The notes beneath the pieces are model-generated. The model was not told the DNA's origin. It searched no databases and worked only from the letters and a program-made list of their open reading frames with translations. The translations under genes were made by a program, and so were the position numbers. Shown in pieces: positions 5,792-56,044 of a stretch of 64,000 bases of DNA. This stretch comes from Armatimonadota bacterium (GTDB taxonomy: Bacteria > Armatimonadota > UBA5829 > DTLH01): assembly GCA_038207085.1 (NCBI GenBank), contig JBBRAE010000006.1:1818-65817 (forward strand). Direction: 5' to 3'. The first letter of the stretch is position 1, and every line of letters starts with the position of its first letter.

Positions 5792-6007
5792 ATGAAGCAG
5801 ACCTTTTCCGCAAGTATAACCAAAGAGGGAGACTGCTACGTGGCCCAGTGCCTGGAGGTCGACGTGGCGAGCGATGGTGAGACTGAAGAAGAAGCGCTGG
5901 AAAACCTCTCGGAAGCGCTCCAGCTCCACTTTACCCCTCCAGTCGCCACTGTTGTGCCAGGCGTGCGGATGATCGAGGTCGATCTACCTACCCCATCCAC
6001 CCCTTGA
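5792..6007 (+). CDS. Orphan HicB-like / UPF0150-family antitoxin-like protein with no adjacent HicA
   Basis: MKQTFSASITKEGDCYVAQCLEVDVASDGETEEEALENLSEALQLHF matches the UPF0150/HicB fold motif. TGgTATAAT sits 18 nt upstream, and GGAGG precedes ATG 5792. No HicA-like ORF on either strand in 5617-5790. The 3' end overlaps the convergent cdsA 3' end. Confidence 0.5.
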   Translation: MKQTFSASITKEGDCYVAQCLEVDVASDGETEEEALENLSEALQLHFTPPVATVVPGVRMIEVDLPTPSTP

Positions 6008-6824
6008 GCGCGATAGTCACGTAGTAGAAAACTACCGGAGCGACGAAGAGCAGGCTGTCGACTCGGTCGAGGACGCCGCCGTGGCCGGGGAGTAGGTTGC
6101 TGAAGTCTTTTACTCCGACTTCGCGCTTGATCGCAGAACCCGCGAGGTCGCCGATCTGGCCGATTATTCCGATCAATGCGCCAAGCACGAGCCCGTGGGG
6201 TTGAGGGATTCCCAAAGCAGCGCCGAGCACCGCGCCGATTATGATCGAGCAGGCAAGACCTGCGACTGAACCCTCCACCGTCTTGTTTGGGCTGATCGTT
6301 GGCGCAAGCTTCTTTCGCCCGTAGAACTTGCCGACGAAATATGCGCCGCTATCAAGCGCCCAGGTGCAGAGAAGCGCAAACATCACAAGCCACGCGCCAG
6401 TTTCGGCGGTCCAGCGTCCGACTGTGACTGATCCGTCGATCCCTCGAAGCAGAGTGAAGTGCATCAGAAGCCAGCAGACGTACCCCAGGCCAAGAAGAGT
6501 CGAGCCGACGTTTGCGAGTGGCTTGCGGTTGTCCCGCAGAAGCTCGTAGGCAAGACAGATGAGCACGAGCCCGACAAGCGTCGGGCCGATGTAGATCATA
6601 TCAGGTGACACTTTGCGCCCGAAGTACAGCACAAGCCCAGCCGCTACGACGCCAAGCATCCGGTTCGGGCGAAACCCGCCCCTGCGCGCCGCACGGTAGA
6701 ACTCGATCATTCCAACGATCACCGCAACGCCGATCAACAGCATAAACGGCAATCCCCCCGGCCAGAAGACCAGGGCAAGTACGATCGGAATTCCAACTAT
6801 TGCAGTTATTATTCGTGTCAGCAT
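5988..6824 (-). CDS. cdsA: Phosphatidate cytidylyltransferase
   Basis: 278 aa with multiple TM helices and the C-terminal signature PGHGGVLDRVDSLLF. Confidence 0.9.
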   Translation of the reverse strand: MLTRIITAIVGIPIVLALVFWPGGLPFMLLIGVAVIVGMIEFYRAARRGGFRPNRMLGVVAAGLVLYFGRKVSPDMIYIGPTLVGLVLICLAYELLRDNRKPLANVGSTLLGLGYVCWLLMHFTLLRGIDGSVTVGRWTAETGAWLVMFALLCTWALDSGAYFVGKFYGRKKLAPTISPNKTVEGSVAGLACSIIIGAVLGAALGIPQPHGLVLGALIGIIGQIGDLAGSAIKREVGVKDFSNLLPGHGGVLDRVDSLLFVAPVVFYYVTIALKGWMG

Positions 6825-38384: not shown

Positions 38385-39599
38385 ATGGAAAGGGCTGCTG
38401 TAATGAACGCACTGAGGCTTGCGGAGGTCGACTCGAAGATCATCTGCGAAGAGGACATGGGCGGGTACCGCCGCGTCACAGGTGAGTTCTGGACTGCGCG
38501 CCAGCGCCAGATGCACAGCATCCACTACGCCGTAAGCTACCGTGCTTCGTTCAAGCCGGAATTGCCCTGCTACTTCATCGACCGCTACTGCTCCGACTCC
38601 GAGCGCGACATCGTCTTTGACCCGTTCGGCGGACGCGGGACGACCATTTTGCAGGCCAATATCGGCGGCTACCGCGGCATCTCAAACGACGTGAACCCGC
38701 TTTCCGAGCGCATCTCCCGGCCAAAGACCCTCCCAGTTACAATCGAAGAAATGGGCGCGGCGCTTGAGCAGATCGACCTGTCAGTCGAAGTGGACGTGTC
38801 GGATTATGAGGCGTTTGCGCCTTTCTATCACATAGATACGTACCGTGAGATACTCGCACTGAGGCAATATCTTCTGGACAACCGAACCGAGGCGGACTGC
38901 TTTATAGAGATGATCGCCCTTTCGCGTCTGCATGGGCACAGTGGAGGCTTTTTCTCGGTATACTCGTTCCCCCAGATATCGGTGCCGTCTGCGTCGCAGG
39001 CGAGGATCAACGAGCAGCGCAACCAGACTCCCAATTATCGTCCAATCAAGCCCCGAATCTTGAAAAAAGCCAAGAGCGTCCTAAGAGATTTTAACCCGTC
39101 CGAGCTTGCCGAGCTTCGAAGTGTCGCAGACCACAACCGATTCACCTGCCACGACACGCGCAAGCTTTCGGGCATCGGCGACGGCGAGGTCGCCCTGATC
39201 GTCACCTCTCCGCCGTTTCTCAACAAGGCCGACTACATTCAGGACAACTGGCTTGAGTTCTGGTTCCTGGGTATCGACCCCACTCCACTGCGCGAGCAGG
39301 TCGTCCAGACCGATAACCTCGACACTTGGACCCAGTTTATGACGGGAAGTATGCAGGAGATGCTTCGGGTTCTGCGCGAGGGCGGCGTCGCGGTGGTCGA
39401 GGTAGGGGACATAAAATACGGCAAAAAAGTAGTGAACCTTGATGAAACGATAGTGGAAATCGCCCAGGAGATCGGCTTCGGCGTTGAAGAGGTGTTGATC
39501 AACTCCCAGCAGTTCACCAAGCTTGCGAACTGCTTCAACGTAGACAACATGACCAAAGGCACCAACACAAACCGCCTGGCAGTGCTAAGAAAAATCTAA
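38385..39599 (+). CDS. DNA methyltransferase (N4-cytosine or N6-adenine; motif I before TRD before motif IV) with no nuclease partner in the window
   Basis: Motif I VFDPFGGRGTT and motif IV LIVTSPPFLN (SPPF). Confidence 0.8.
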   Translation: MERAAVMNALRLAEVDSKIICEEDMGGYRRVTGEFWTARQRQMHSIHYAVSYRASFKPELPCYFIDRYCSDSERDIVFDPFGGRGTTILQANIGGYRGISNDVNPLSERISRPKTLPVTIEEMGAALEQIDLSVEVDVSDYEAFAPFYHIDTYREILALRQYLLDNRTEADCFIEMIALSRLHGHSGGFFSVYSFPQISVPSASQARINEQRNQTPNYRPIKPRILKKAKSVLRDFNPSELAELRSVADHNRFTCHDTRKLSGIGDGEVALIVTSPPFLNKADYIQDNWLEFWFLGIDPTPLREQVVQTDNLDTWTQFMTGSMQEMLRVLREGGVAVVEVGDIKYGKKVVNLDETIVEIAQEIGFGVEEVLINSQQFTKLANCFNVDNMTKGTNTNRLAVLRKI

Positions 39600-47089: not shown

Positions 47090-49126
47090 TCAGCTGACCA
47101 GCTCAGCGGCTCCCCATAGCAGCACATGCCGATCCTTGGCGAAATGCGCCGCATCTGCCGTAAACCCGCCGGGACAAACCAGCAGGCCCTGCACGATACG
47201 ACTCCCCCGAGGCAGCACGTCGCTCAGTTCTCTGACCGCCCGGACGTCCGCGGGTGAAGACCAGTTCCTGCACTGCACGAAGAGCGTAATCTCTGAGCCC
47301 AGCTCATCTCTCATACGCGCGATCAGGTCGACTCCTCCACCGTGTGAAGGCGGTGACATCTCCACCTCATAGCCCAGGCGTTCAAGACGGTATTTTGCGA
47401 GCATATCGAGCTCCGGGCCGGACAACTCCGAGATTGAGACATCCCTGGCGCTGGTGCGTTGACGTCTGGGCGGCTCCAGGTTGAAGATACCGAAGAGCTC
47501 TTTCTCCGTGAGACTCCCTCCGAGGTCCATGCACACGTCATCCACATATTCGGTGAAGAGGCTCTTCTTGCTCCGCAGTATCTGATGGATGCGCTCCTCT
47601 ATAGTGTCTTCGCAAATGTACTTGTAAACGCTGACGCCCCGAGTCTGCCCGATCCGGTGGGAGCGGTCTTCGGCCTGCGACTCGCTCGCCGGGTTCCACC
47701 AACGGTCGAAGTGGAAAACGTAGGATGCGCTCTGAAGATTCAGCCCGACTCCCCCGGCTCGAAGCGACAGGATCATGACACCGGCTTCGGGATTGTCTCG
47801 GAAGGCTCTCGTGGCTTCTTCGCGCTGGCCGATGCTCATGTCTCCTGTATAAAGCACCGGCCCGAACCTCGCAAGCGCACGCCCGAGGCGATAAACTCCG
47901 TAGGTCTCGCTCGTAAACTGCGAGAAGATCAGCGCCTTATGCCCCTCCTCCCGAAGCGCGCTGAGTCTTCTGACCATATCCTCCAGCTTGGATGAGCGAC
48001 CCGATTCGGTGGCGAAATTGCATATCTGCTTCAGCCTGGTGATAAGAGCGAGCACATCTGTTACGGTGGCGTCCTGTCCCTTATCGCAAAGCAGAGCCGT
48101 ACCCGTTCCCAGCAGACCGCCATACTCCTCTCGCTGCTCTTTCGTAAGCGGTACCGCGAGTACGGTTGTGAGCTTAGGTGGCAGGTCCGAAAGAACCTCC
48201 GATTTCTTCCTTCTGAGCTGAATCTCCGCAAGCCTGGACCGGATATCTTCATCTTTGATGGGGCCGGGGATGAGGAACGACATTATCGAGCGAAGGTCCT
48301 CGACGCTGTTCTCCAGTGGGGTCCCCGTGAGCGCCCACCGGCGCTCAGAGGTGATGCTGCACACCGCTCCGCTGACCGCGGACTCCTTGTTCTTAATCCG
48401 CTGCGCTTCGTCCAGACAGACCAGGTCCCATCCAACTTGCGATGCTCGAATGCGGCCTATGTCCGAGCGCAGCGTCTCATAGCTGACTATCTTGACGTGG
48501 ACGCGTGAGTCCCATTTCCACACCCTTTGCGCGGCGGACCCCGTGATCTCGACGGTTCTAAGCTCCGGCGCCCACTTTGCCATCTCCGCCCGCCAATTCC
48601 TGATGACCCCGGCAGGAGCGACGATGAGGGTGGTTTCGATCTCTCTTCTCCTGGTGAGCAGCCGGATGGCCGCAGCTGCCTGAACGGTCTTGCCGAGGCC
48701 CATGTCGTCCGCTAAAAGGATATGAGGGCGCTCGATGAGCATCCTGATCCCGGTCCGCTGGAATTCCATCAATTCCGAGGGCCATTCTATCGGGCCCGAT
48801 GCCGCGAGGCATATCGAGAGCGGCGGCTGAAGTAGTGCGGCGAGCCTTTTGTTCAGAGACGGCATCTCCGGCGCTGGATCGGACCTGTTGCGGCTGATCG
48901 CGCCGCCTTCCCTGTTTTGGGGCCAAAAAAACGGTGGGACAGCTGTCGATTCATCCCCCTGCCATGGCGCGAGGCTGAGAGAAACCGAGCCACTGTCCGT
49001 GGTTTTCGTTCTGCGTTCGAGCGTCTGCAAAGCTCCTACTTCAGGAACGCTTCGCATGGCCGTGTGCGTGCCGGAGGACGTTGGGAAGGCCGCAGTTGTG
49101 TTTATTAAATAGCTGACGGCACTCAT
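47090..49126 (-). CDS. SNF2-family helicase/translocase fused to a C-terminal Mrr-like (PD-(D/E)XK restriction endonuclease-like) domain
   Basis: SNF2 motifs LADDMGLGKTVQ (I), LVCLDEAQRIKN (II), ALTGTPLEN (III), and GGVGLNLQSASYVFHFDRWWNPASESQAEDRSHRIGQ (V-VI). The C-terminal 130 aa carry GGVDLIAR...LFVQCRNW, which is Mrr_cat-like. Confidence 0.85.
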   Translation of the reverse strand: MSAVSYLINTTAAFPTSSGTHTAMRSVPEVGALQTLERRTKTTDSGSVSLSLAPWQGDESTAVPPFFWPQNREGGAISRNRSDPAPEMPSLNKRLAALLQPPLSICLAASGPIEWPSELMEFQRTGIRMLIERPHILLADDMGLGKTVQAAAAIRLLTRRREIETTLIVAPAGVIRNWRAEMAKWAPELRTVEITGSAAQRVWKWDSRVHVKIVSYETLRSDIGRIRASQVGWDLVCLDEAQRIKNKESAVSGAVCSITSERRWALTGTPLENSVEDLRSIMSFLIPGPIKDEDIRSRLAEIQLRRKKSEVLSDLPPKLTTVLAVPLTKEQREEYGGLLGTGTALLCDKGQDATVTDVLALITRLKQICNFATESGRSSKLEDMVRRLSALREEGHKALIFSQFTSETYGVYRLGRALARFGPVLYTGDMSIGQREEATRAFRDNPEAGVMILSLRAGGVGLNLQSASYVFHFDRWWNPASESQAEDRSHRIGQTRGVSVYKYICEDTIEERIHQILRSKKSLFTEYVDDVCMDLGGSLTEKELFGIFNLEPPRRQRTSARDVSISELSGPELDMLAKYRLERLGYEVEMSPPSHGGGVDLIARMRDELGSEITLFVQCRNWSSPADVRAVRELSDVLPRGSRIVQGLLVCPGGFTADAAHFAKDRHVLLWGAAELVS

Positions 49127-49653
49127 GGCTCGAAAAGATCGGGGTAGACTTCCCGCAGCCCGATCTCGGCCCTCTCGAACGGTTCGAGCAGCAGCCCACG
49201 AACGGCGATTATGTTAATCAGACGCCTCGCCGGGGAGTTTTCGTCCTGTTCTATAGTCCATTGGAGCAAAATATCGCCGTCTAGTTCGGAATCTTCGGGA
49301 GGCGGTTCCTGGGATATAAGAACGATCGGGGTCTCGACCTGTATCTGCTCCGAAAACAGCCTTGAATCGACTTCATCTGCCCGGCACACGATGACAAGCG
49401 GCGCCACCGGGCACGCATCGAATATGGCCGCTGCCAGAGACCTCACGCATGTGAGAAAAAAGTCCTCGGGACGCCAAAGGGTAGGGGATGGCGCCTGCAC
49501 TCTGGCATACGTGAACTCCACCGGCTCCCCGGCGGCATCGATCATAAGCATCGCCCCGAGCCAGAAATCGTCGGCCACATGCGGCAGGAACCTTAGGAAA
49601 CCCGCCGCACCTGGAGGGTCGTCGGTTATTCCGTGGAATGGGATTGGGGACAT
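49123..49653 (-). CDS. Hypothetical protein (176 aa), operon partner of the SNF2-nuclease gene
   Basis: Start overlaps the upstream gene stop and stop overlaps the downstream gene start (ATGA-type coupling). No recognisable motif. Confidence 0.5.
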   Translation of the reverse strand: MSPIPFHGITDDPPGAAGFLRFLPHVADDFWLGAMLMIDAAGEPVEFTYARVQAPSPTLWRPEDFFLTCVRSLAAAIFDACPVAPLVIVCRADEVDSRLFSEQIQVETPIVLISQEPPPEDSELDGDILLQWTIEQDENSPARRLINIIAVRGLLLEPFERAEIGLREVYPDLFEP

Positions 49654-49659
49654 AATCGG

Positions 49660-50910
49660 CTAACCCTCCCCAGTTTCCTCCCGCGAAAGCTCCACATCCT
49701 CCGAGTAATCCGGCGTCATCTCCTCTACGACTACCTCGGGCCTATATTCCGGGTAGAGCAGCATCATATCCCACTGGGTTATCCACGACTTGACGTGCTC
49801 TCGTATTGACCTCGAAGCCAGCAGCTCTCCGCCCTGCGCGGGAGGAGCGTCCCACTCGAATGCGCGGGAGTGAAGAAGGCGGACCCGTTCCTTCAGTTCC
49901 TTAAACTCATCAAGCTTCACCGACCTGAGTGATTTTGCGCGCCTCAGCACCTTCATTCCGGCTTCGGCGTCGCGCGCGAGCTCAATGTCGCCGGCGCGGC
50001 CCCGATCCCGCAGCCATTCCGGAATCTCCGAGTCTCTCTTCTGCTCCTCGGCCGTGGCCCAAAAGTCATCGGTGATCGAGAATACGGGGAGCAGTCCCGA
50101 AATCTTGATATCCTTCACGACCCCTGCGAGCCGGGCCACCTGGGCATACGACTTGGCGCGTTGCAGCTTGCTGTAGCGAAGCATCAGCTCCACTTCATCG
50201 ATCAGCACTACCCAACCGGTGTATCCCGCAGCGTGAAAGAGCCTTGGCAGAAACCTCCACAGATGGACACCGAGTTCCCTCTGCGGCATGGTCGTGACCC
50301 TGTAGTAGTTATGGAGCTGAATCTCCTTCAGCGCTCTCCTGATGTCGGACACCTTCATCGGGTATCCCGACCACTCCCAGGCTGCCTGATCGAGAAACTC
50401 CTCGGCCCCAGCGGGGTGGTCTTCGATGATCTTGAGCAGCGGCGCGAACCTGCCCGCGAGTGCAGGCTGTTCGACCGCCCATTTGAAAAGCAGCGAGAAT
50501 CGTTCGCCGGTGAGTCTCTCCGAGAAGAGCACTTCAGGCACCGCTCGTCCGGCCGTTTCCACAAGCGCTGCCGTCTCAGCCGCGGCACGGACCAGCTTCA
50601 GTCCGTCGAAAAGTGGTGTCTCCTTGCTTATGACCACGTGGCTGCACACGCACCGCTGCTCCATGGCCTCGTGTCTCAGATACTCGAGCAGATGCGACTT
50701 GCCAGCGCCGAACCCGCCGGAGATGACCATCGCCCGGGGCGAGGTATCGTCTTTCTGTGCCGATTCCTCCAGTTCCCAGAGCATCTCCGTGAATTTCTGG
50801 GTGATGTCCCCCTGGAAAACCGGGAGTTGGCGGACCGCGTCGCGGTTGGGAACCCCCGCACGCAGCGCTTCGATCGCGCGTCTTGCCATTAGTCTGCCGT
50901 CGTTATTCAT
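49660..50910 (-). CDS. P-loop NTPase (Walker A/B), tentatively BrxD/DUF2791-like ATPase
   Basis: Walker A AMVISGGFGAGKSHLLEYL and Walker B GWVVLIDEVE. 416 aa. Confidence 0.6.
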   Translation of the reverse strand: MNNDGRLMARRAIEALRAGVPNRDAVRQLPVFQGDITQKFTEMLWELEESAQKDDTSPRAMVISGGFGAGKSHLLEYLRHEAMEQRCVCSHVVISKETPLFDGLKLVRAAAETAALVETAGRAVPEVLFSERLTGERFSLLFKWAVEQPALAGRFAPLLKIIEDHPAGAEEFLDQAAWEWSGYPMKVSDIRRALKEIQLHNYYRVTTMPQRELGVHLWRFLPRLFHAAGYTGWVVLIDEVELMLRYSKLQRAKSYAQVARLAGVVKDIKISGLLPVFSITDDFWATAEEQKRDSEIPEWLRDRGRAGDIELARDAEAGMKVLRRAKSLRSVKLDEFKELKERVRLLHSRAFEWDAPPAQGGELLASRSIREHVKSWITQWDMMLLYPEYRPEVVVEEMTPDYSEDVELSREETGEG

Positions 50911-51904
50911 CGCTCGCCCCGCTTTCTCCTACCCGGACCATGGCCGCCAGAAGGTCCTGGCGGGAGACGTCGTGCACCTCGCTGAACAGGCGGCTCTGCA
51001 GAGCGTAGTATCCGAATATGGACCTCTTTTCATCCGTCTCGATCGCATCCGGCGCCGCCGCACAGATGAGGCAGTGTGTGATCTCGTCGGTCTCATCTAT
51101 GAACTGCCTCAGCACTTCATAGGCATCGAGGAGAGAACTGCGGCTGTAGTGGAGCGTGTTCAGGTCGTCATCCATCCCCCTTGGACGCACGGCGAGAAGC
51201 GCCGACAGGTCGATCCCGACGACCAGCCCCTTGCCGATCGATCTTGCGAGCCAGTGTGCGAACGCTCTCAGTAGATCACGGGCGTTCTGCCGGTTAATCT
51301 TGGAGTAGATGCGAAGGTCTCGAAGCGCGGAAGCGCCCACCTTTTCACCGCGGAGCCAAGAGCTGATCGTCTCTGTATCGCTCGGGCTGACGTTACGAGG
51401 AAAGAACTGCGCTTTTCGAAGCTGAGAGATGGCAGTGCGAAACTCCTTACACATATCGCGGTCCTGAACGATCTCGTCCGTTGTTGCGCGGCGAAGCTCC
51501 CTCAGCAGTTCTTCGGGGATGAGGCCGTTAGCCGATGCGATGGTTTCGGTGTCGGAAAGCTCGGTGTCCTCGGGCATCAGATAGCCACGTTCACGGAGAA
51601 ACCTGATTCCGTCCAGAATCATGAGAGCATTCCAGTCAATCTGCCTGCTGATGGCGAAGAATACCTGGTCGATTCTGTCCACCCGGGTCTCAGCGGCGGA
51701 TACCTGGACGTATAGGCAGTTCCGCTCCTCGGCCTTGCGGCGCAGATGCTCAAGCGCCACTTTCGATCCGCCAGCGTCTCCGGCGAGCACCAGCTTGAAC
51801 GCGGATCCGCCTTCCATTATAAAGTTCTCAAGATAATAGCTGTCGATTACCCGAAGCCAGTCATCTAAAGTCGCAGTCAAATCATCCACCTCACTCTGAA
51901 GCAT
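50903..51904 (-). CDS. Paralog of the downstream P-loop ATPase with a degenerate Walker A
   Basis: FKLVLAGDAGGSKVALEHL aligns with VISGGFGAGKSHLLEYL of the next gene but lacks the GK[ST] core. Start set to the internal ATG (MLQSEVDD) at 51904 to avoid a 175-nt overlap with the upstream gene. Confidence 0.5.
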   Translation of the reverse strand: MLQSEVDDLTATLDDWLRVIDSYYLENFIMEGGSAFKLVLAGDAGGSKVALEHLRRKAEERNCLYVQVSAAETRVDRIDQVFFAISRQIDWNALMILDGIRFLRERGYLMPEDTELSDTETIASANGLIPEELLRELRRATTDEIVQDRDMCKEFRTAISQLRKAQFFPRNVSPSDTETISSWLRGEKVGASALRDLRIYSKINRQNARDLLRAFAHWLARSIGKGLVVGIDLSALLAVRPRGMDDDLNTLHYSRSSLLDAYEVLRQFIDETDEITHCLICAAAPDAIETDEKRSIFGYYALQSRLFSEVHDVSRQDLLAAMVRVGESGASDE

Positions 51905-52673
51905 TGAACCGGATCGTGCAGTAGAGCCGCCGCTGTCCGTCCCTGGTGATGACGGACAGCATCTTTCTGTCATCCCTGGTGCTGCTGCTTGCCTCAAGGA
52001 CCGCGGTATGGCCCCTGACCTCCAGGCTCTCGCCGGAGGCGTCGAGCAGATACATGTCTCGAACAAACTCCTGCTCGGAATAATCGCTGCCTGGCGCGGC
52101 GGCCATTATCTCATAAATATCGCGCAGGTAGAGTGACTTGCCCGCCCAGGGTTCGGACTTTTTGATGTTGCTGGAGGCGAGTGCCTTGTACACCTTGAAA
52201 AGGGAGGCGAGAAACCGTGCGGCAGGAAATCTGTTTGGTCGGTTTTGGACAGCGCTCAAAATGGCGGCTAGAGTGCGTGGCCGGAGGTGTATCTCGGTCT
52301 TCTTGTCTATCTTGACCGCTCTGCCGGCGGTGTCGAGCCTGAGGATAGCCGGGTACACGTAGAGCACGTCCCCATGCTCGTGATAGTCCACTCCCGACTC
52401 AGCGAGCGCAGCCTTCAACTCGTCCTGATACTCCTCGCATGCGAAATAGTCTGCGATGCCGCAGTCCTCCCAGCTTGAGCTAAACTGCTGTAGTCCTTCA
52501 AGGGCCTTCACCAGTTCCTGCTCCGCGTCTGCGAGCTTCCGCGACAGGGTCTTTATCTCTCCACCGTCCAGCATCTTGAGGCATGCCGAAGCCGCCGTTG
52601 CGCCTTTCCTGGCCGCGCCGACCACTGGCTTCAGAGCCTCCACGCTGCTGGCGATCGTCTCTTCAAATCTCAT
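51891..52673 (-). CDS. Hypothetical protein (260 aa), first gene of the five-gene operon
   Basis: AT-rich putative promoter region directly upstream (52674-52760). No recognisable motif. Confidence 0.5.
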   Translation of the reverse strand: MRFEETIASSVEALKPVVGAARKGATAASACLKMLDGGEIKTLSRKLADAEQELVKALEGLQQFSSSWEDCGIADYFACEEYQDELKAALAESGVDYHEHGDVLYVYPAILRLDTAGRAVKIDKKTEIHLRPRTLAAILSAVQNRPNRFPAARFLASLFKVYKALASSNIKKSEPWAGKSLYLRDIYEIMAAAPGSDYSEQEFVRDMYLLDASGESLEVRGHTAVLEASSSTRDDRKMLSVITRDGQRRLYCTIRFNASE

Positions 52674-53277
52674 TTATAAACTCCCGTTTCTATCGATTCA
52701 ACATATTATTATACGCGAGCGTTCCTCATTCCTTCGTCAATACACAGAGTATCATCTTTGGGGTGTGGACTGTAATACTATTTATAATGAATGGGGCCGT
52801 TTTCAAGGTAACAGCTACTGGAGCTATGACGGGACGGGCGGCTGGGAGGATTGCACGGATCTGGAGATCTGGCGAGTCACACGCAAGAAGGAGCTGCAGG
52901 ATGACCAGCCGGTCGGCTGTTTGTTGATCCGAAGCTGCACGCGGCCGGTTACGGCGAGAAGCTGACCGATCCGACCAAGCTGCCGGAACTGTTCGCTTAC
53001 ACGCTGCAGGCGGACTCGCCGCTGTGGAATGCCGGGCTGGACATGAAAGCGCGCTTCAACATCGACACTGGTGGCAAAGACTTCACCGGCGCCCCTATCC
53101 CCGCGGACAAGCTGCGCTGCGTCGGTGCGTGTGTGAACCTGGGGAAACCGTAATGTAATAGACTTGCCCGGAAATCATCGCTGAGTGGATTCTGAGGCTA
53201 TTTTTTCGTCAGGCAATGCGTAGTGATTTTCACACTTTGGTATGCTGCTGGAACGATTCGATTCAGCCTTCTTCTCA

Positions 53278-53464
53278 AGTCTAAGAGCGTGTCTAAGAAG
53301 TGTAGTGGCCGTCCGTCGTGACGGCCATCGGCTCCGAAGGAGCCGGAAAACGGTGGAATTACGTGCCAATTGAGCATTGATACGAGTAGGGCAGCGCCTA
53401 CGGCGCTGATGGCCGGCACAGCGACCCGCCACTACAATCGGGATTTCTCAGACACGCTCTAAGC
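53278..53464 (+). repeat. Copy 2 of the 187-nt structured terminal-inverted-repeat element
   Basis: About 92 percent identical to 31211-31397 over the full length. Differences are concentrated in hairpin loops. Confidence 0.6.
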
Positions 53465-53640
53465 AGATTTAGTTCCCGCTGCCGTGGGAGATTGTACCGT
53501 CGCTGCGGGAACTGAATTGTGCAAAGCCCATAGTTGGGGCTAATGGAAACGTTCCGGCAGCATACCACGACATGATAATCGCTGCACAATCAACTGTCGC
53601 TGTTCCTCACTCATAGTTAGTACTCATCAAGACTGAACTT

Positions 53641-55170
53641 TTACCTTTCCCCGAACGCCACCCCACGCACATACTCGTTCGTCCGCACCAGCGAATCTGC
53701 CGTGCTGGCGATCGTTTTGCCATTCACCGTAAGACCAAGAAACCGGACATTCTCTATCATGTGCTCGGTGTCGCAGCCCTTAATGTCGATGCTGGGTATG
53801 TCTACGCCGCGCACATCAATTCCGCTGAACACAACGTTGCGCACCCGTCAGACTCCGCTGTCCTTGGCCCAGACATCCTTCTGATTGTCAATCTTCACCA
53901 ATGCTCGGCCCATGTGATCGTCGCAGGAGCTTTTCGGATACTCCACAGACATACGCTCAAATATGACATCCTCGACGGTACCACTGTCACTGACGTGCAC
54001 GCCAATCGGCCAGTTGCGAGCAAAGATCACATCACAATCGGTGAATCGAACATTTCGTATGTTGGCCCGCGTCTCATAGGATATCCCGAACGCATAGCCC
54101 CAGTCGTTCCATGCCACGCAACGTTCATAGCGGATGTTCTCAGCCTTAAGCTCCGGGTTGGTCGTCTTGACCACGAAACTGTCGTCGTGATTGCGGATGA
54201 AGCAGTCACGAACAGTTATATTTGAGGAACTCACGCAGTTGATACCATCACTGTTCAACCTCCCACTTATCCCACAGACACCCTCAATGGTCACATCGTC
54301 GCAATCAACGATGGGAATGTTCCAGTTAGGTGAATTGCGCAGAGTCACACCCTCGACTCGTACTCGCTGTGAGCGTCCCAGACGAATGAGGTTCTTGGCG
54401 GGATGCGGTAGCAGCGTACCATCCAGAATACCTCGTCCGCAGATTCTAACGTCCTGCACTTCGGCGACATCTATCACTGGGCCAGGGTAATAGTACAGAT
54501 TGAGCACGCCGCTTCGCTTACCGCTGGCGCCGGCTGGCAGCACCCCCCGCACAATGGCGTCACCGTGCAGGTAGACAGTCTGCCCGCTTTTGACCTTGAT
54601 GGTATTCACCCAGTGCTCCCCCGGGCCAAAATAGATCACGTTGGGATCTTCGGGTTTCGGAGCGTTGACTTCCGGCCGATGAGTGAACAGGTGCAGTGGC
54701 TCCTTGTCGGAACCATCAAGTAGCACGGTGATCTGCCGAGGCTTGTCCATACGGAAGCGGACAGTTCGACCCTTCACATCTGCGGTGATACCAGCCGATC
54801 GGGGCAGGATGTCAGCCTTACTAAAATCACGGTCCACAGTTACTGTTACTTCCACAGTCCCTGAGAAATCAAAGCGCGCAAATCCACACCAGTCAGTGGG
54901 CCCATTAAGCATGTGAGTCCATCCGGTGTCTGCGGGGCTGCTGATCTGCTCTCGGACACGAGCACTCCACACAGGAACTGTCACCCCGCCGACCTGAACC
55001 TTGTAAAGAGGAAACGGCGACTCAGTAAGTGGAATGGCCCAGGTAGTCACCTTGCCCATTGTCGTGGCTCCAGCCATCGCCTCTTTCGGCCCCACTGCGC
55101 CGTCTTGGGCAACGCAGACCAACGAAGCAACAACAATGCAAGCGGCAAATACCGCAACCACTCCATTCAA
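53641..55170 (-). pseudogene. GH28-like right-handed beta-helix glycoside hydrolase (polygalacturonase-like) interrupted by an in-frame TGA at 53848-53850
   Basis: A 440-aa ORF (signal peptide, then NSDGINC, RNHDDSF and beta-helix repeats) ends ...AKDSGV-TGA. The same frame continues RVRNVVFSGIDVRG...IENVRFLGLTVNGK for 68 more codons. Confidence 0.5.
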
Positions 55171-55641: not shown

Positions 55642-55872
55642 ATGAAAGCTGCACCCGATCCGAGAGTCGCAATATTGGGATTGTCTCGCAGTGAACTTGT
55701 CGTGCTGGTTGATAGTCTGCTGGAACGGCTGTCGACGTTGGAAGGCAGCCTCCGGCAACTCCAGGAGCAGAATGCCTCGCTCTCCGCCGAGAACGATGCG
55801 CTCCGTGCCCAAGTCAAGGAACTGCTGGATAAGCTGAATAAAGACATTCACAACAACAGCAGCCATCCGTGA
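55642..55872 (+). mobile_element. IS66-family transposase N-terminal fragment (leucine-zipper region only). A remnant.
   Basis: The coiled-coil LERLSTLEGSLRQLQEQNASLSAENDALRAQVKELLDKLNKDIHNNSS resembles the LZ_Tnp_IS66 N-terminus (...LEARL.KNSSNSSKPP). The ORF stops after 76 aa with no zinc-finger or DDE domain following. Confidence 0.5.
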
Positions 55873-55969: not shown

Positions 55970-56044
55970 TGGTGGGCGATACTGGATTCGAACCAGTGAC
56001 CCCTTCGGTGTGAACGAAGTGCTCTCCCACTGAGCCAATCGCCC
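55970..56044 (-). tRNA. tRNA-Val (anticodon CAC)
   Basis: The reverse complement is GGGCGAT-TG-GCTCAGTGGGAGAGC-A-CTTCG-TTCACAC-CGAAG-GGGTC-ACTGGTTCGAATCCAGT-ATCGCCC-A-CCA. All four stems pair. CCA is encoded. Confidence 0.9.

Follow-up and report, generated by a model that had tools for sequence, protein, structure and literature searches.

A five-gene cassette joining an active and a degenerate BrxD-like ATPase to a SNF2 helicase: a candidate defence system in Armatimonadota

Introduction

What do five tightly packed genes of an Armatimonadota bacterium do together, and do they belong to a defence system that already has a name? The genes, here called A to E, lie on the minus strand of a 64,000-nucleotide (nt) stretch of DNA (contig JBBRAE010000006.1, positions 1,818 to 65,817; assembly GCA_038207085.1), which in what follows is the window. 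An earlier note on this stretch took them for a candidate undescribed defence-type operon, ending in a SNF2 helicase fused to an Mrr-like nuclease. Our analysis supports that proposal, as no named system could be assigned, but the defence role itself is something that we infer. In our best reading, the cassette is a variant of the "ORC/Cdc6-like ATPase + helicase(-nuclease)" defence theme, with two new protein families. It is probably an autonomous, horizontally mobile five-gene unit that defends against phages or plasmids, that is, an anti-mobile-element system.

Results

A conserved five-gene operon

Gene content and order, domain identities, motif states, conservation and the variability of genomic context are reported here as observed. 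The cassette and its landmarks in the window are as follows:

51891..52673, minus strand: gene A, 260 amino acids (aa), no known family
50903..51904, minus strand: gene B, 333 aa from ATG; BrxD-like AAA+ paralog without P-loop, predicted pseudo-ATPase
49660..50910, minus strand: gene C, 416 aa; BrxD-like ORC/Cdc6-type AAA+ ATPase
49123..49653, minus strand: gene D, 176 aa; new family, predicted RNase H-like / endonuclease V-like fold
47090..49126, minus strand: gene E, 678 aa; variable N-terminus, SNF2 ATPase core, C-terminal Mrr_cat domain
47507..48793, minus strand: SNF2 ATPase core of E, aa ~112-540; SNF2-rel_dom and Helicase_C
47096..47431, minus strand: Mrr_cat PD-(D/E)XK domain of E, aa 566-677; PF04471
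47267..47269, minus strand: codon AGG, Arg620 of E, which by domain alignment occupies the catalytic Lys position of the Mrr D..QxK motif
52674..52806, minus strand: AT-rich DNA upstream of the operon, putative promoter region read from the sequence

Reading the sequence confirmed the five minus-strand open reading frames (ORFs). As each has homologs and their order is conserved, they are real genes and not chance ORFs. A 2.3-kb contig from sequencing run SRR19962012 matches the window with full identity in A and B. Among 105 loci, from which duplicates were removed before counting, A, B, C and D follow one another on one strand wherever at least 4 kb is available upstream of D (37/37), and an SNF2 gene comes next after D in 70 of the 74 loci with at least 600 nt downstream. 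The unit first seen in one genome is therefore a recurring one. It is also sporadic: a pattern scan tuned to close relatives found only 8 loci among 185,579 species genomes, and the flanking genes were different at every locus examined, as expected of a cassette lying outside any conserved core-genome context.

The genes had been described as overlapping or abutting end to start, and the junctions largely follow that description. With the ATG at 51904 as the B start, A and B share 14 nt (the A stop, TGA, is at 51891-51893). A TTG at 51880, 8 nt past GAGGTG, is an alternative B start that agrees with the alignment onset of most orthologs, and the two genes are adjacent whichever start applies. 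B and C share 8 nt (ATGAATAA) and D and E share 4 nt (ATGA), but C and D do not overlap: they abut with a 6-nt spacer, and a purine-rich, Shine-Dalgarno-like run (GGGGAGGG) lies within the 3' end of C. Orthologous loci, L002, L019 and L023 among them, again show tight junctions or start-stop overlaps, so that the overlaps are not annotation artefacts. The operon had been drawn up to 52760; gene A, however, starts at 52673, and 52674-52760 is AT-rich upstream DNA. The AT-rich stretch is real and its promoter role putative, as the sigma-70-like matches upstream of A (three, one of them at 52806-52777, against 2.2 expected) are not above chance. In GC content (0.56-0.63) the cassette does not stand out from its flanks.

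A-B-C-SNF2 cassettes without D occur at L004/L011, L015-L017 and L021/L022. At L004/L011 (10001-14528) this four-gene form, which also lacks Mrr, sits inside a sugar ATP-binding cassette (ABC) transporter operon, between the solute-binding-protein gene and two permease genes. In L015-L017 an unrelated gene of 158 aa comes after SNF2; this gene of L015 and the 182-aa gene in the same place at L021 were considered as a relocated D and ruled out by hhalign. At L012 (10001-13039; OW818698.1, an 8.2 Mb chromosome) A-B-C stand alone, followed by membrane-protein genes, and represent either a truncated cassette or a stand-alone module. L020 is a degraded copy.

An active and a degenerate ATPase

C matches PF10923 (BrxC_BrxD) at 4.7e-21 and 75.6 bits, and B at 4.1e-11 and 42.9 bits, both over the gathering threshold of 22.2; their orthologs carry the same annotation at all loci examined. 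The tentative assignment of C as BrxD/DUF2791-like is upheld in this family sense, with scores against the BrxD equivalog of NCBIfam (NF033438, cut-off 350) of 51.9 bits for C and 36.8 bits for B. PADLOC matches C to BrxD (2.9e-14) and to SngB (2.1e-8), both weakly and the latter in part; B gives a weak BrxD match and a partial SngB match (1.3e-6), weaker than BrxD. B and C had been called paralogs. Their relatedness rests on the PF10923 matches that they share, but a direct BLASTP comparison of the two gave no significant similarity.

In an alignment of 15 orthologs, C keeps its Walker A (GxFGxGKSH) and Walker B (L-I/F-DE-V-E-L; LIDEVE in the window) throughout, while B, in all lineages, is without a conserved P-loop and retains only the Walker B Asp. 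The combination of one active and one degenerate P-loop, which the earlier note had read from the window, is thus a property of the whole family. Moreover, one lineage (L015-L017; L015 10800-13100) encodes B and C together in a polypeptide of 766 aa, a natural fusion that speaks for their acting as a physical pair. The acidic C-terminal tail of C (D-Y-S-E-D-x-D-L-S-x-E-E; window 49660-49720) is conserved across divergent orthologs and may be a docking motif.

The SNF2 helicase and its optional Mrr domain

E was described as a true SNF2 translocase, and this is what we find. Pfam recovers SNF2-rel_dom (8e-49, 166.7 bits) and Helicase_C (9e-18, 65 bits), the motifs DDMGLGKT, DEAQ, TGTP, GGVGLN and QAEDR, which cover helicase motifs I, II (DExx), III, V and VI, are all there, and the SNF2 core is 52-72% identical among orthologs. 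In PADLOC, E gives partial matches to generic SNF2 models such as ZorD, DpdE and DrmD, with ZorD the best at 278 bits.

The fusion to an Mrr-like nuclease needs a finer reading. The Mrr_cat domain is present (PF04471; 1.8e-17, 64 bits against a cut-off of 21), but the catalytic D...(Q/E)xK triad of the window copy has its Lys replaced by Arg (D..Q-C-R), the codon AGG being one transition from AAG, which makes nuclease activity doubtful for this copy. Across 26 distinct Mrr domains, the one in the window and 25 from orthologous cassettes, the D..QxK triad (DQK) is intact in 19, DQR occurs in the window alone, and the further variants are DQN, DRL, DRV and DQH. Cassettes of the L007 and L037 type are among those that keep D..QxK. 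Mrr_cat is fused to SNF2 in 25 of the 48 complete E orthologs; at L091 it has a gene of its own, immediately 3' of the SNF2 gene (5899-6207, triad DQH), which shows that the fusion is separable. On these counts, the fusion appears to be frequent, optional and usually catalytically plausible, and the nuclease of the window copy is probably impaired. Four sequences had first suggested a generally degenerate Mrr domain restricted to a single Armatimonadota clade, a view that an 80-locus metagenome set overturned.

Two new protein families

A and D belong to no family in Pfam, PADLOC-DB v2, NCBIfam or PHROGs, and A has no Pfam or PADLOC match at E<=0.1. The model of A, with a predicted local distance difference test (pLDDT) score of 91, shows a long hairpin of helices (aa 3-70) and, after it, an alpha/beta domain. 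Foldseek found no significant relative of this model, with Cdt1 and ESCRT-II winged-helix domains, at E>1, the only suggestive matches. No catalytic-looking motif is conserved across the wider A family, and by its sequence A is most likely non-enzymatic. A PD-(D/E)XK-like "D..DKK" motif in A was considered and dropped, as the wider family does not conserve it. Close relatives of A form 49 clusters at 90% identity among 5.8 billion proteins. When its profile was run against 1.84 billion representatives, 561 clusters at 50% identity came up (341 at E<=1e-10), all of ~260 aa. The family has few named members, which appear as "hypothetical proteins" in metagenome-assembled genomes (MAGs) of Armatimonadota, Candidatus Xenobia, Candidatus Dormibacteria and one deltaproteobacterium.

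D is confidently predicted to adopt an RNase H-like, endonuclease V (EndoV)-like fold, an assignment borne out by structural similarity of the model. The closest folds are those of the repair enzymes EndoV, RNase HII and the UvrC C-terminal domain, and further fold relatives are an EndoV-like UPF0215 protein, PIWI domains and NurA. Over 86 D sequences, E43, E46, D64, E94, E157 and E168 are invariant or nearly so; D64, E94, E157 and E168 are plausible positions for putative acidic catalytic residues. D also occurs in a Longimicrobiaceae MAG, and a profile scan of metagenomes found 217 stretches encoding it.

Signs of mobility and insertions between C and D

Insertion sequence (IS) elements surround L018, and an integrase gene lies near L023. 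Defence-type neighbours were seen at L002 (E1-E2, CapP and a dGTPase-like protein, by PADLOC), L018 (a WYL regulator) and L021 (a PDC-S37/Hhe-like helicase).

Exactly between C and D, where the window has just its 6-nt spacer, 14 of 79 loci carry an insert longer than 300 nt. The inserts fall into at least five families: PhdYeFM with PIN, ParE, PemK/MazF with a ribbon-helix-helix protein, DUF4258 with a zinc-finger antitoxin-like protein, and HNH. As these modules are mutually unrelated, the junction has been struck independently. They resemble the hotspot for inserted defence genes described within the hmaABC operon (PMC11232893). Inserts lie at:

L002: 12795-13411
L006: 9062-9971
L007: 3410-5279
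L014: 3811-4436
L033: 7419-7974
L038: 2261-2816
L028: 1154-1886
L049: 7246-7946

Surroundings of the window copy

The earlier note placed the operon in an accessory region, next to an inactivated glycosidase gene, an IS66 remnant, a repeat element and tRNA-Val. The tRNA-Val gene was located at 55970-56044 and is the sole Rfam match. The IS66 remnant was not confirmed: the 76-aa coiled-coil ORF at 55642-55872 (plus strand) gives only generic leucine-zipper matches in Pfam, and DUF6444 at E=0.037. The glycosidase is a glycoside hydrolase family 28 (GH28) gene (53641-55170, minus strand) with an in-frame stop at 53848-53850 (…KDSGV*RVRNVVFSGIDV…); the stop could make the gene a pseudogene, or could reflect a sequencing error or recoding. 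The repeat is a nested inverted repeat (53217-53588), with 47-nt outer arms 74% complementary (53217-53263 / 53542-53588) and 19-nt inner arms at 89% (53281-53299 / 53445-53463); it holds no long ORF and has no Rfam match, and it could be an element resembling a miniature inverted-repeat transposable element (MITE). A frameshifted, 5'-truncated coding fragment without a Pfam match (52785-53150, plus strand) ends ~110 nt from the start of gene A, at an AT-rich segment, and may be the edge of the inserted cassette. No direct repeats or att sites were found flanking the cassette. On its other side, 7.5 kb away, a gene for an N6/N4 DNA methylase (38385-39599, plus strand) lies without an evident restriction partner, separated from the cassette by genes for a Crp-type regulator, a glycoside hydrolase of family 2 and a CoA-transferase; it is not linked to the cassette at any other locus.

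Discussion

The order in which these proteins act, how they pair and what they act against we infer from the features above. We hypothesize that C, an active ORC/Cdc6-like AAA+ protein, and B, which lacks a P-loop, would form a heteromeric ATP-driven switch or loader. A, with its coiled-coil hairpin and putative DNA-binding alpha/beta domain, would join B and C as a sensing or scaffolding part. D and E, coupled by their start and stop codons, would be the effector, an EndoV-like RNase H fold beside a minimal SNF2 dsDNA translocase. Once loaded or activated on foreign DNA, E would translocate; the DNA might then be cut by D and/or, in the roughly half of the family that has it, by the fused Mrr domain; alternatively, transcription and replication complexes might be stripped off it. 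With its catalytic Lys replaced by Arg, the window copy would rely on D for cleavage, or have a weakened nuclease step.

The defence reading is supported by the invariant gene order and the SNF2 gene that nearly always follows it, the recurring overlaps, the B-C fusion, the Walker states of the two ATPases, the intact SNF2 motifs and the Mrr triad kept in most domains. It also draws on the PF10923 membership of the ATPases and their weak matches to BrxD and SngB, the Hma precedent, the sporadic spread among unrelated flanks, the defence-type neighbours, the IS elements and integrase, and the toxin-antitoxin (TA) and HNH inserts between C and D. Several observations weigh against it. The cassettes carry no methyltransferase or other self-marking gene, which leaves self/non-self discrimination unaccounted for. 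The variants L004, L015 and L021 lack both D and Mrr, so that a nuclease is not universal. In the 86 D sequences no conserved acidic residue falls on predicted beta1, the site of the canonical RNase H-fold Asp (a position taken from secondary structure alone), and for this reason the catalytic role of D is putative. The window copy is flanked by carbohydrate-metabolism genes and not by a defence island. Finally, A and D were not found in phage, plasmid and viral-contig collections, to which we give neutral weight; the A3 alignment was too divergent for the pattern scan in these searches.

The lack of a self-marking gene would be no obstacle if the cassette were a multi-subunit, type IV-like, modification-dependent restriction system, a mechanistic sub-variant of defence in which the AAA+ pair and the SNF2 motor translocate and the Mrr-type nuclease cuts modified foreign DNA, so that no cognate methylase is needed. 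Methyltransferase genes are indeed absent from all cassettes examined, Mrr_cat (PF04471) serves as catalytic domain in a family of type IV enzymes, and an AAA+ motor with a PD-(D/E)XK nuclease is the logic of McrBC. However, Pfam, PADLOC and NCBIfam detect no reader of modified bases (SRA, YTH, EVE or Mrr N-terminal) in A-E, half of the cassettes have no Mrr, and the catalytic Lys is replaced in the window copy. We consider this mechanism unlikely. A role outside immunity, in accessory genome maintenance, seems to us an improbable account too. Here a RapA/Mfd-like SNF2 translocase, loaded by the ORC/Cdc6-like ATPase pair, would resolve stalled transcription or replication complexes or process lesions, with D as an EndoV-like lesion-binding subunit. 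The repair enzymes closest in fold to D fit such a role, as do weak NCBIfam matches of E to RapA and to a pilus-regulating Snf2 helicase, the cassettes without an evident nuclease and the metabolic genes that flank the window copy. A maintenance function is difficult to reconcile, however, with the very sporadic distribution in unrelated contexts, the restriction-type nuclease fused in 25 of 48 orthologs, the TA modules within the operon and the defence genes adjoining it, the cassette inserted in a sugar ABC transporter operon, and the decayed copies L012 and L020.

The window cassette could also be a decaying or nuclease-dead copy, kept without its original activity, although we hold this to be very unlikely. 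Its Lys-to-Arg change is unique among the 26 Mrr domains, neighbouring genes bear marks of decay (the GH28 gene with its in-frame stop and the frameshifted fragment at 52785-53150), and degraded cassettes exist elsewhere (L012 and L020). Nevertheless, its five ORFs are all full length, the Walker motifs of C and the SNF2 motifs of E are intact, and other lineages function, or at least persist, without the Mrr domain; a single AAG-to-AGG difference could, besides, be an assembly or consensus error. We keep the reading of the cassette as a probable mobile anti-phage or anti-plasmid system. It is tempting to go further, and as a tentative possibility we propose a hitherto unnamed immune system of five genes that is widespread among poorly cultured phyla of soil and sediment (Armatimonadota, Eremiobacterota/Xenobia, Dormibacterota and Gemmatimonadota). 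In it, an active/inactive BrxD-type AAA+ heterodimer and a winged-helix-like coiled-coil protein might load a SNF2 translocase onto foreign DNA in the manner of ORC/Cdc6-Cdt1, and the EndoV-fold subunit and/or a fused Mrr domain might cleave that DNA, with no self-marking modification.

If the cassette is a defence system, it is a well-delimited addition to the group of ORC/Cdc6-like ATPases with helicases (BrxD-BrxHI, Shango and Hma/BR), a poorly understood group in which, to our knowledge, no member has a worked-out mechanism. It would offer experimental handles on how ATPases control helicases: an obligate active/inactive pair that is naturally fused in one lineage, an optional nuclease and a modular EndoV-fold subunit. 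It brings two protein families without any annotation, A with its 561 clusters and D with its 217 metagenomic stretches. It also indicates that conserved cassettes which current hidden Markov model libraries miss are carried by phyla absent from culture-based defence screens. A curiosity of operon architecture, apart from this, is that unrelated TA modules have repeatedly been captured at a single intergenic junction.

Comparison with known systems

PADLOC-DB v2, NCBIfam and Pfam assign the cassette to none of BREX, Zorya, Shango, Hma, DISARM and Dpd, and membership in each was rejected because core partners are missing and equivalog scores are far below cut-offs. The expectation that no named system would claim it is thus borne out: PADLOC-DB v2 gives no call for the whole cassette, with no match for A and D and partial or weak ones for B, C and E. 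We found no published account of the gene combination in the literature covered, which is incomplete.

ZorD of type I Zorya shares the architecture of SNF2 with an Mrr-like nuclease. As the earlier note held, however, this is not Zorya: the partners ZorA, ZorB and ZorC are missing, PADLOC finds no match in A-D to the MotAB-like membrane complex ZorA/ZorB, and E is ~400 aa shorter than ZorD and scores 166.9 bits against the ZorD equivalog (NF041790, cut-off 1500 bits). The absence of BREX, Pgl and DISARM core genes, also claimed before, holds for A-E. For DISARM (DrmA, DrmB with DUF1998, and a methylase) there is a partial DrmD-type SNF2 match for E and nothing for A-D. For Dpd (DpdA/B/C) there are DpdE-type SNF2 matches for E alone, at 77.7 bits in NCBIfam against 500. 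HerA-NurA, UvrB-UvrC and PIWI-helicase pairings show no sequence relationship to the cassette, and D, judged by predicted secondary structure, lacks the beta1 catalytic Asp.

BrxD and SngB of Shango are ATPases paired with helicases in defence systems, and BrxD has been proposed to load or activate its helicase (PMC12839542). In type 2 BREX and Pgl, BrxD and BrxHI join a PF10923, ORC/Cdc6-like stand-alone AAA+ ATPase in close linkage to a superfamily 2 helicase, as the cassette does. BREX itself requires PglZ, BrxC/PglY and PglX/BrxX or BrxP; PglZ, PglX and BrxC do not rise above noise in A-E, PglW is absent as well, and none of PglZ, PglX and BrxC was seen among genes called at the related loci whose gene tables were examined. 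The cassette helicase is SNF2, whereas BrxHI is Lhr/Ski2-like; the cassette has two copies of the ATPase, one active and one inactive, and A and D are extra, novel genes. Shango (SngA, a TerB protein; SngB, an ATPase; SngC, a helicase) likewise has no methylase and sets a helicase and a BrxD-related ATPase beside a small, sensor-like protein. In contrast to SngA, A has no TerB domain by Pfam or PADLOC; the cassette helicase is SNF2, and the pseudo-ATPase paralog, the EndoV-like protein and the optional Mrr nuclease are additions that Shango does not have.

Hma, or DUF499-centred BR type 1, pairs an ORC/Cdc6-STAND-like ATPase with a Swi2/Snf2 helicase bearing a C-terminal PD-(D/E)XK nuclease (PMC11232893, PMC12839542), and E, with SNF2 and Mrr_cat, has this helicase-nuclease arrangement. 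The cassette differs in that the DUF499 ATPase and the N6-adenine methyltransferase are not among A-E, E lacks the TUDOR and inactive restriction endonuclease architecture described for HmaA and BrxHII, and the PADLOC match of E to the HmaA model reaches 72 bits only. In HmaA, an SNF2-PD-(D/E)XK fusion, both the Snf2 ATPase and the nuclease (a nickase) were shown by experiment to be needed against T4 (PMC11232893). By analogy, the mechanism that we propose would parallel the loader role put forward for BrxD-BrxHI (PMC12839542), the gene logic of Shango and the joint action of helicase and nuclease in HmaA.

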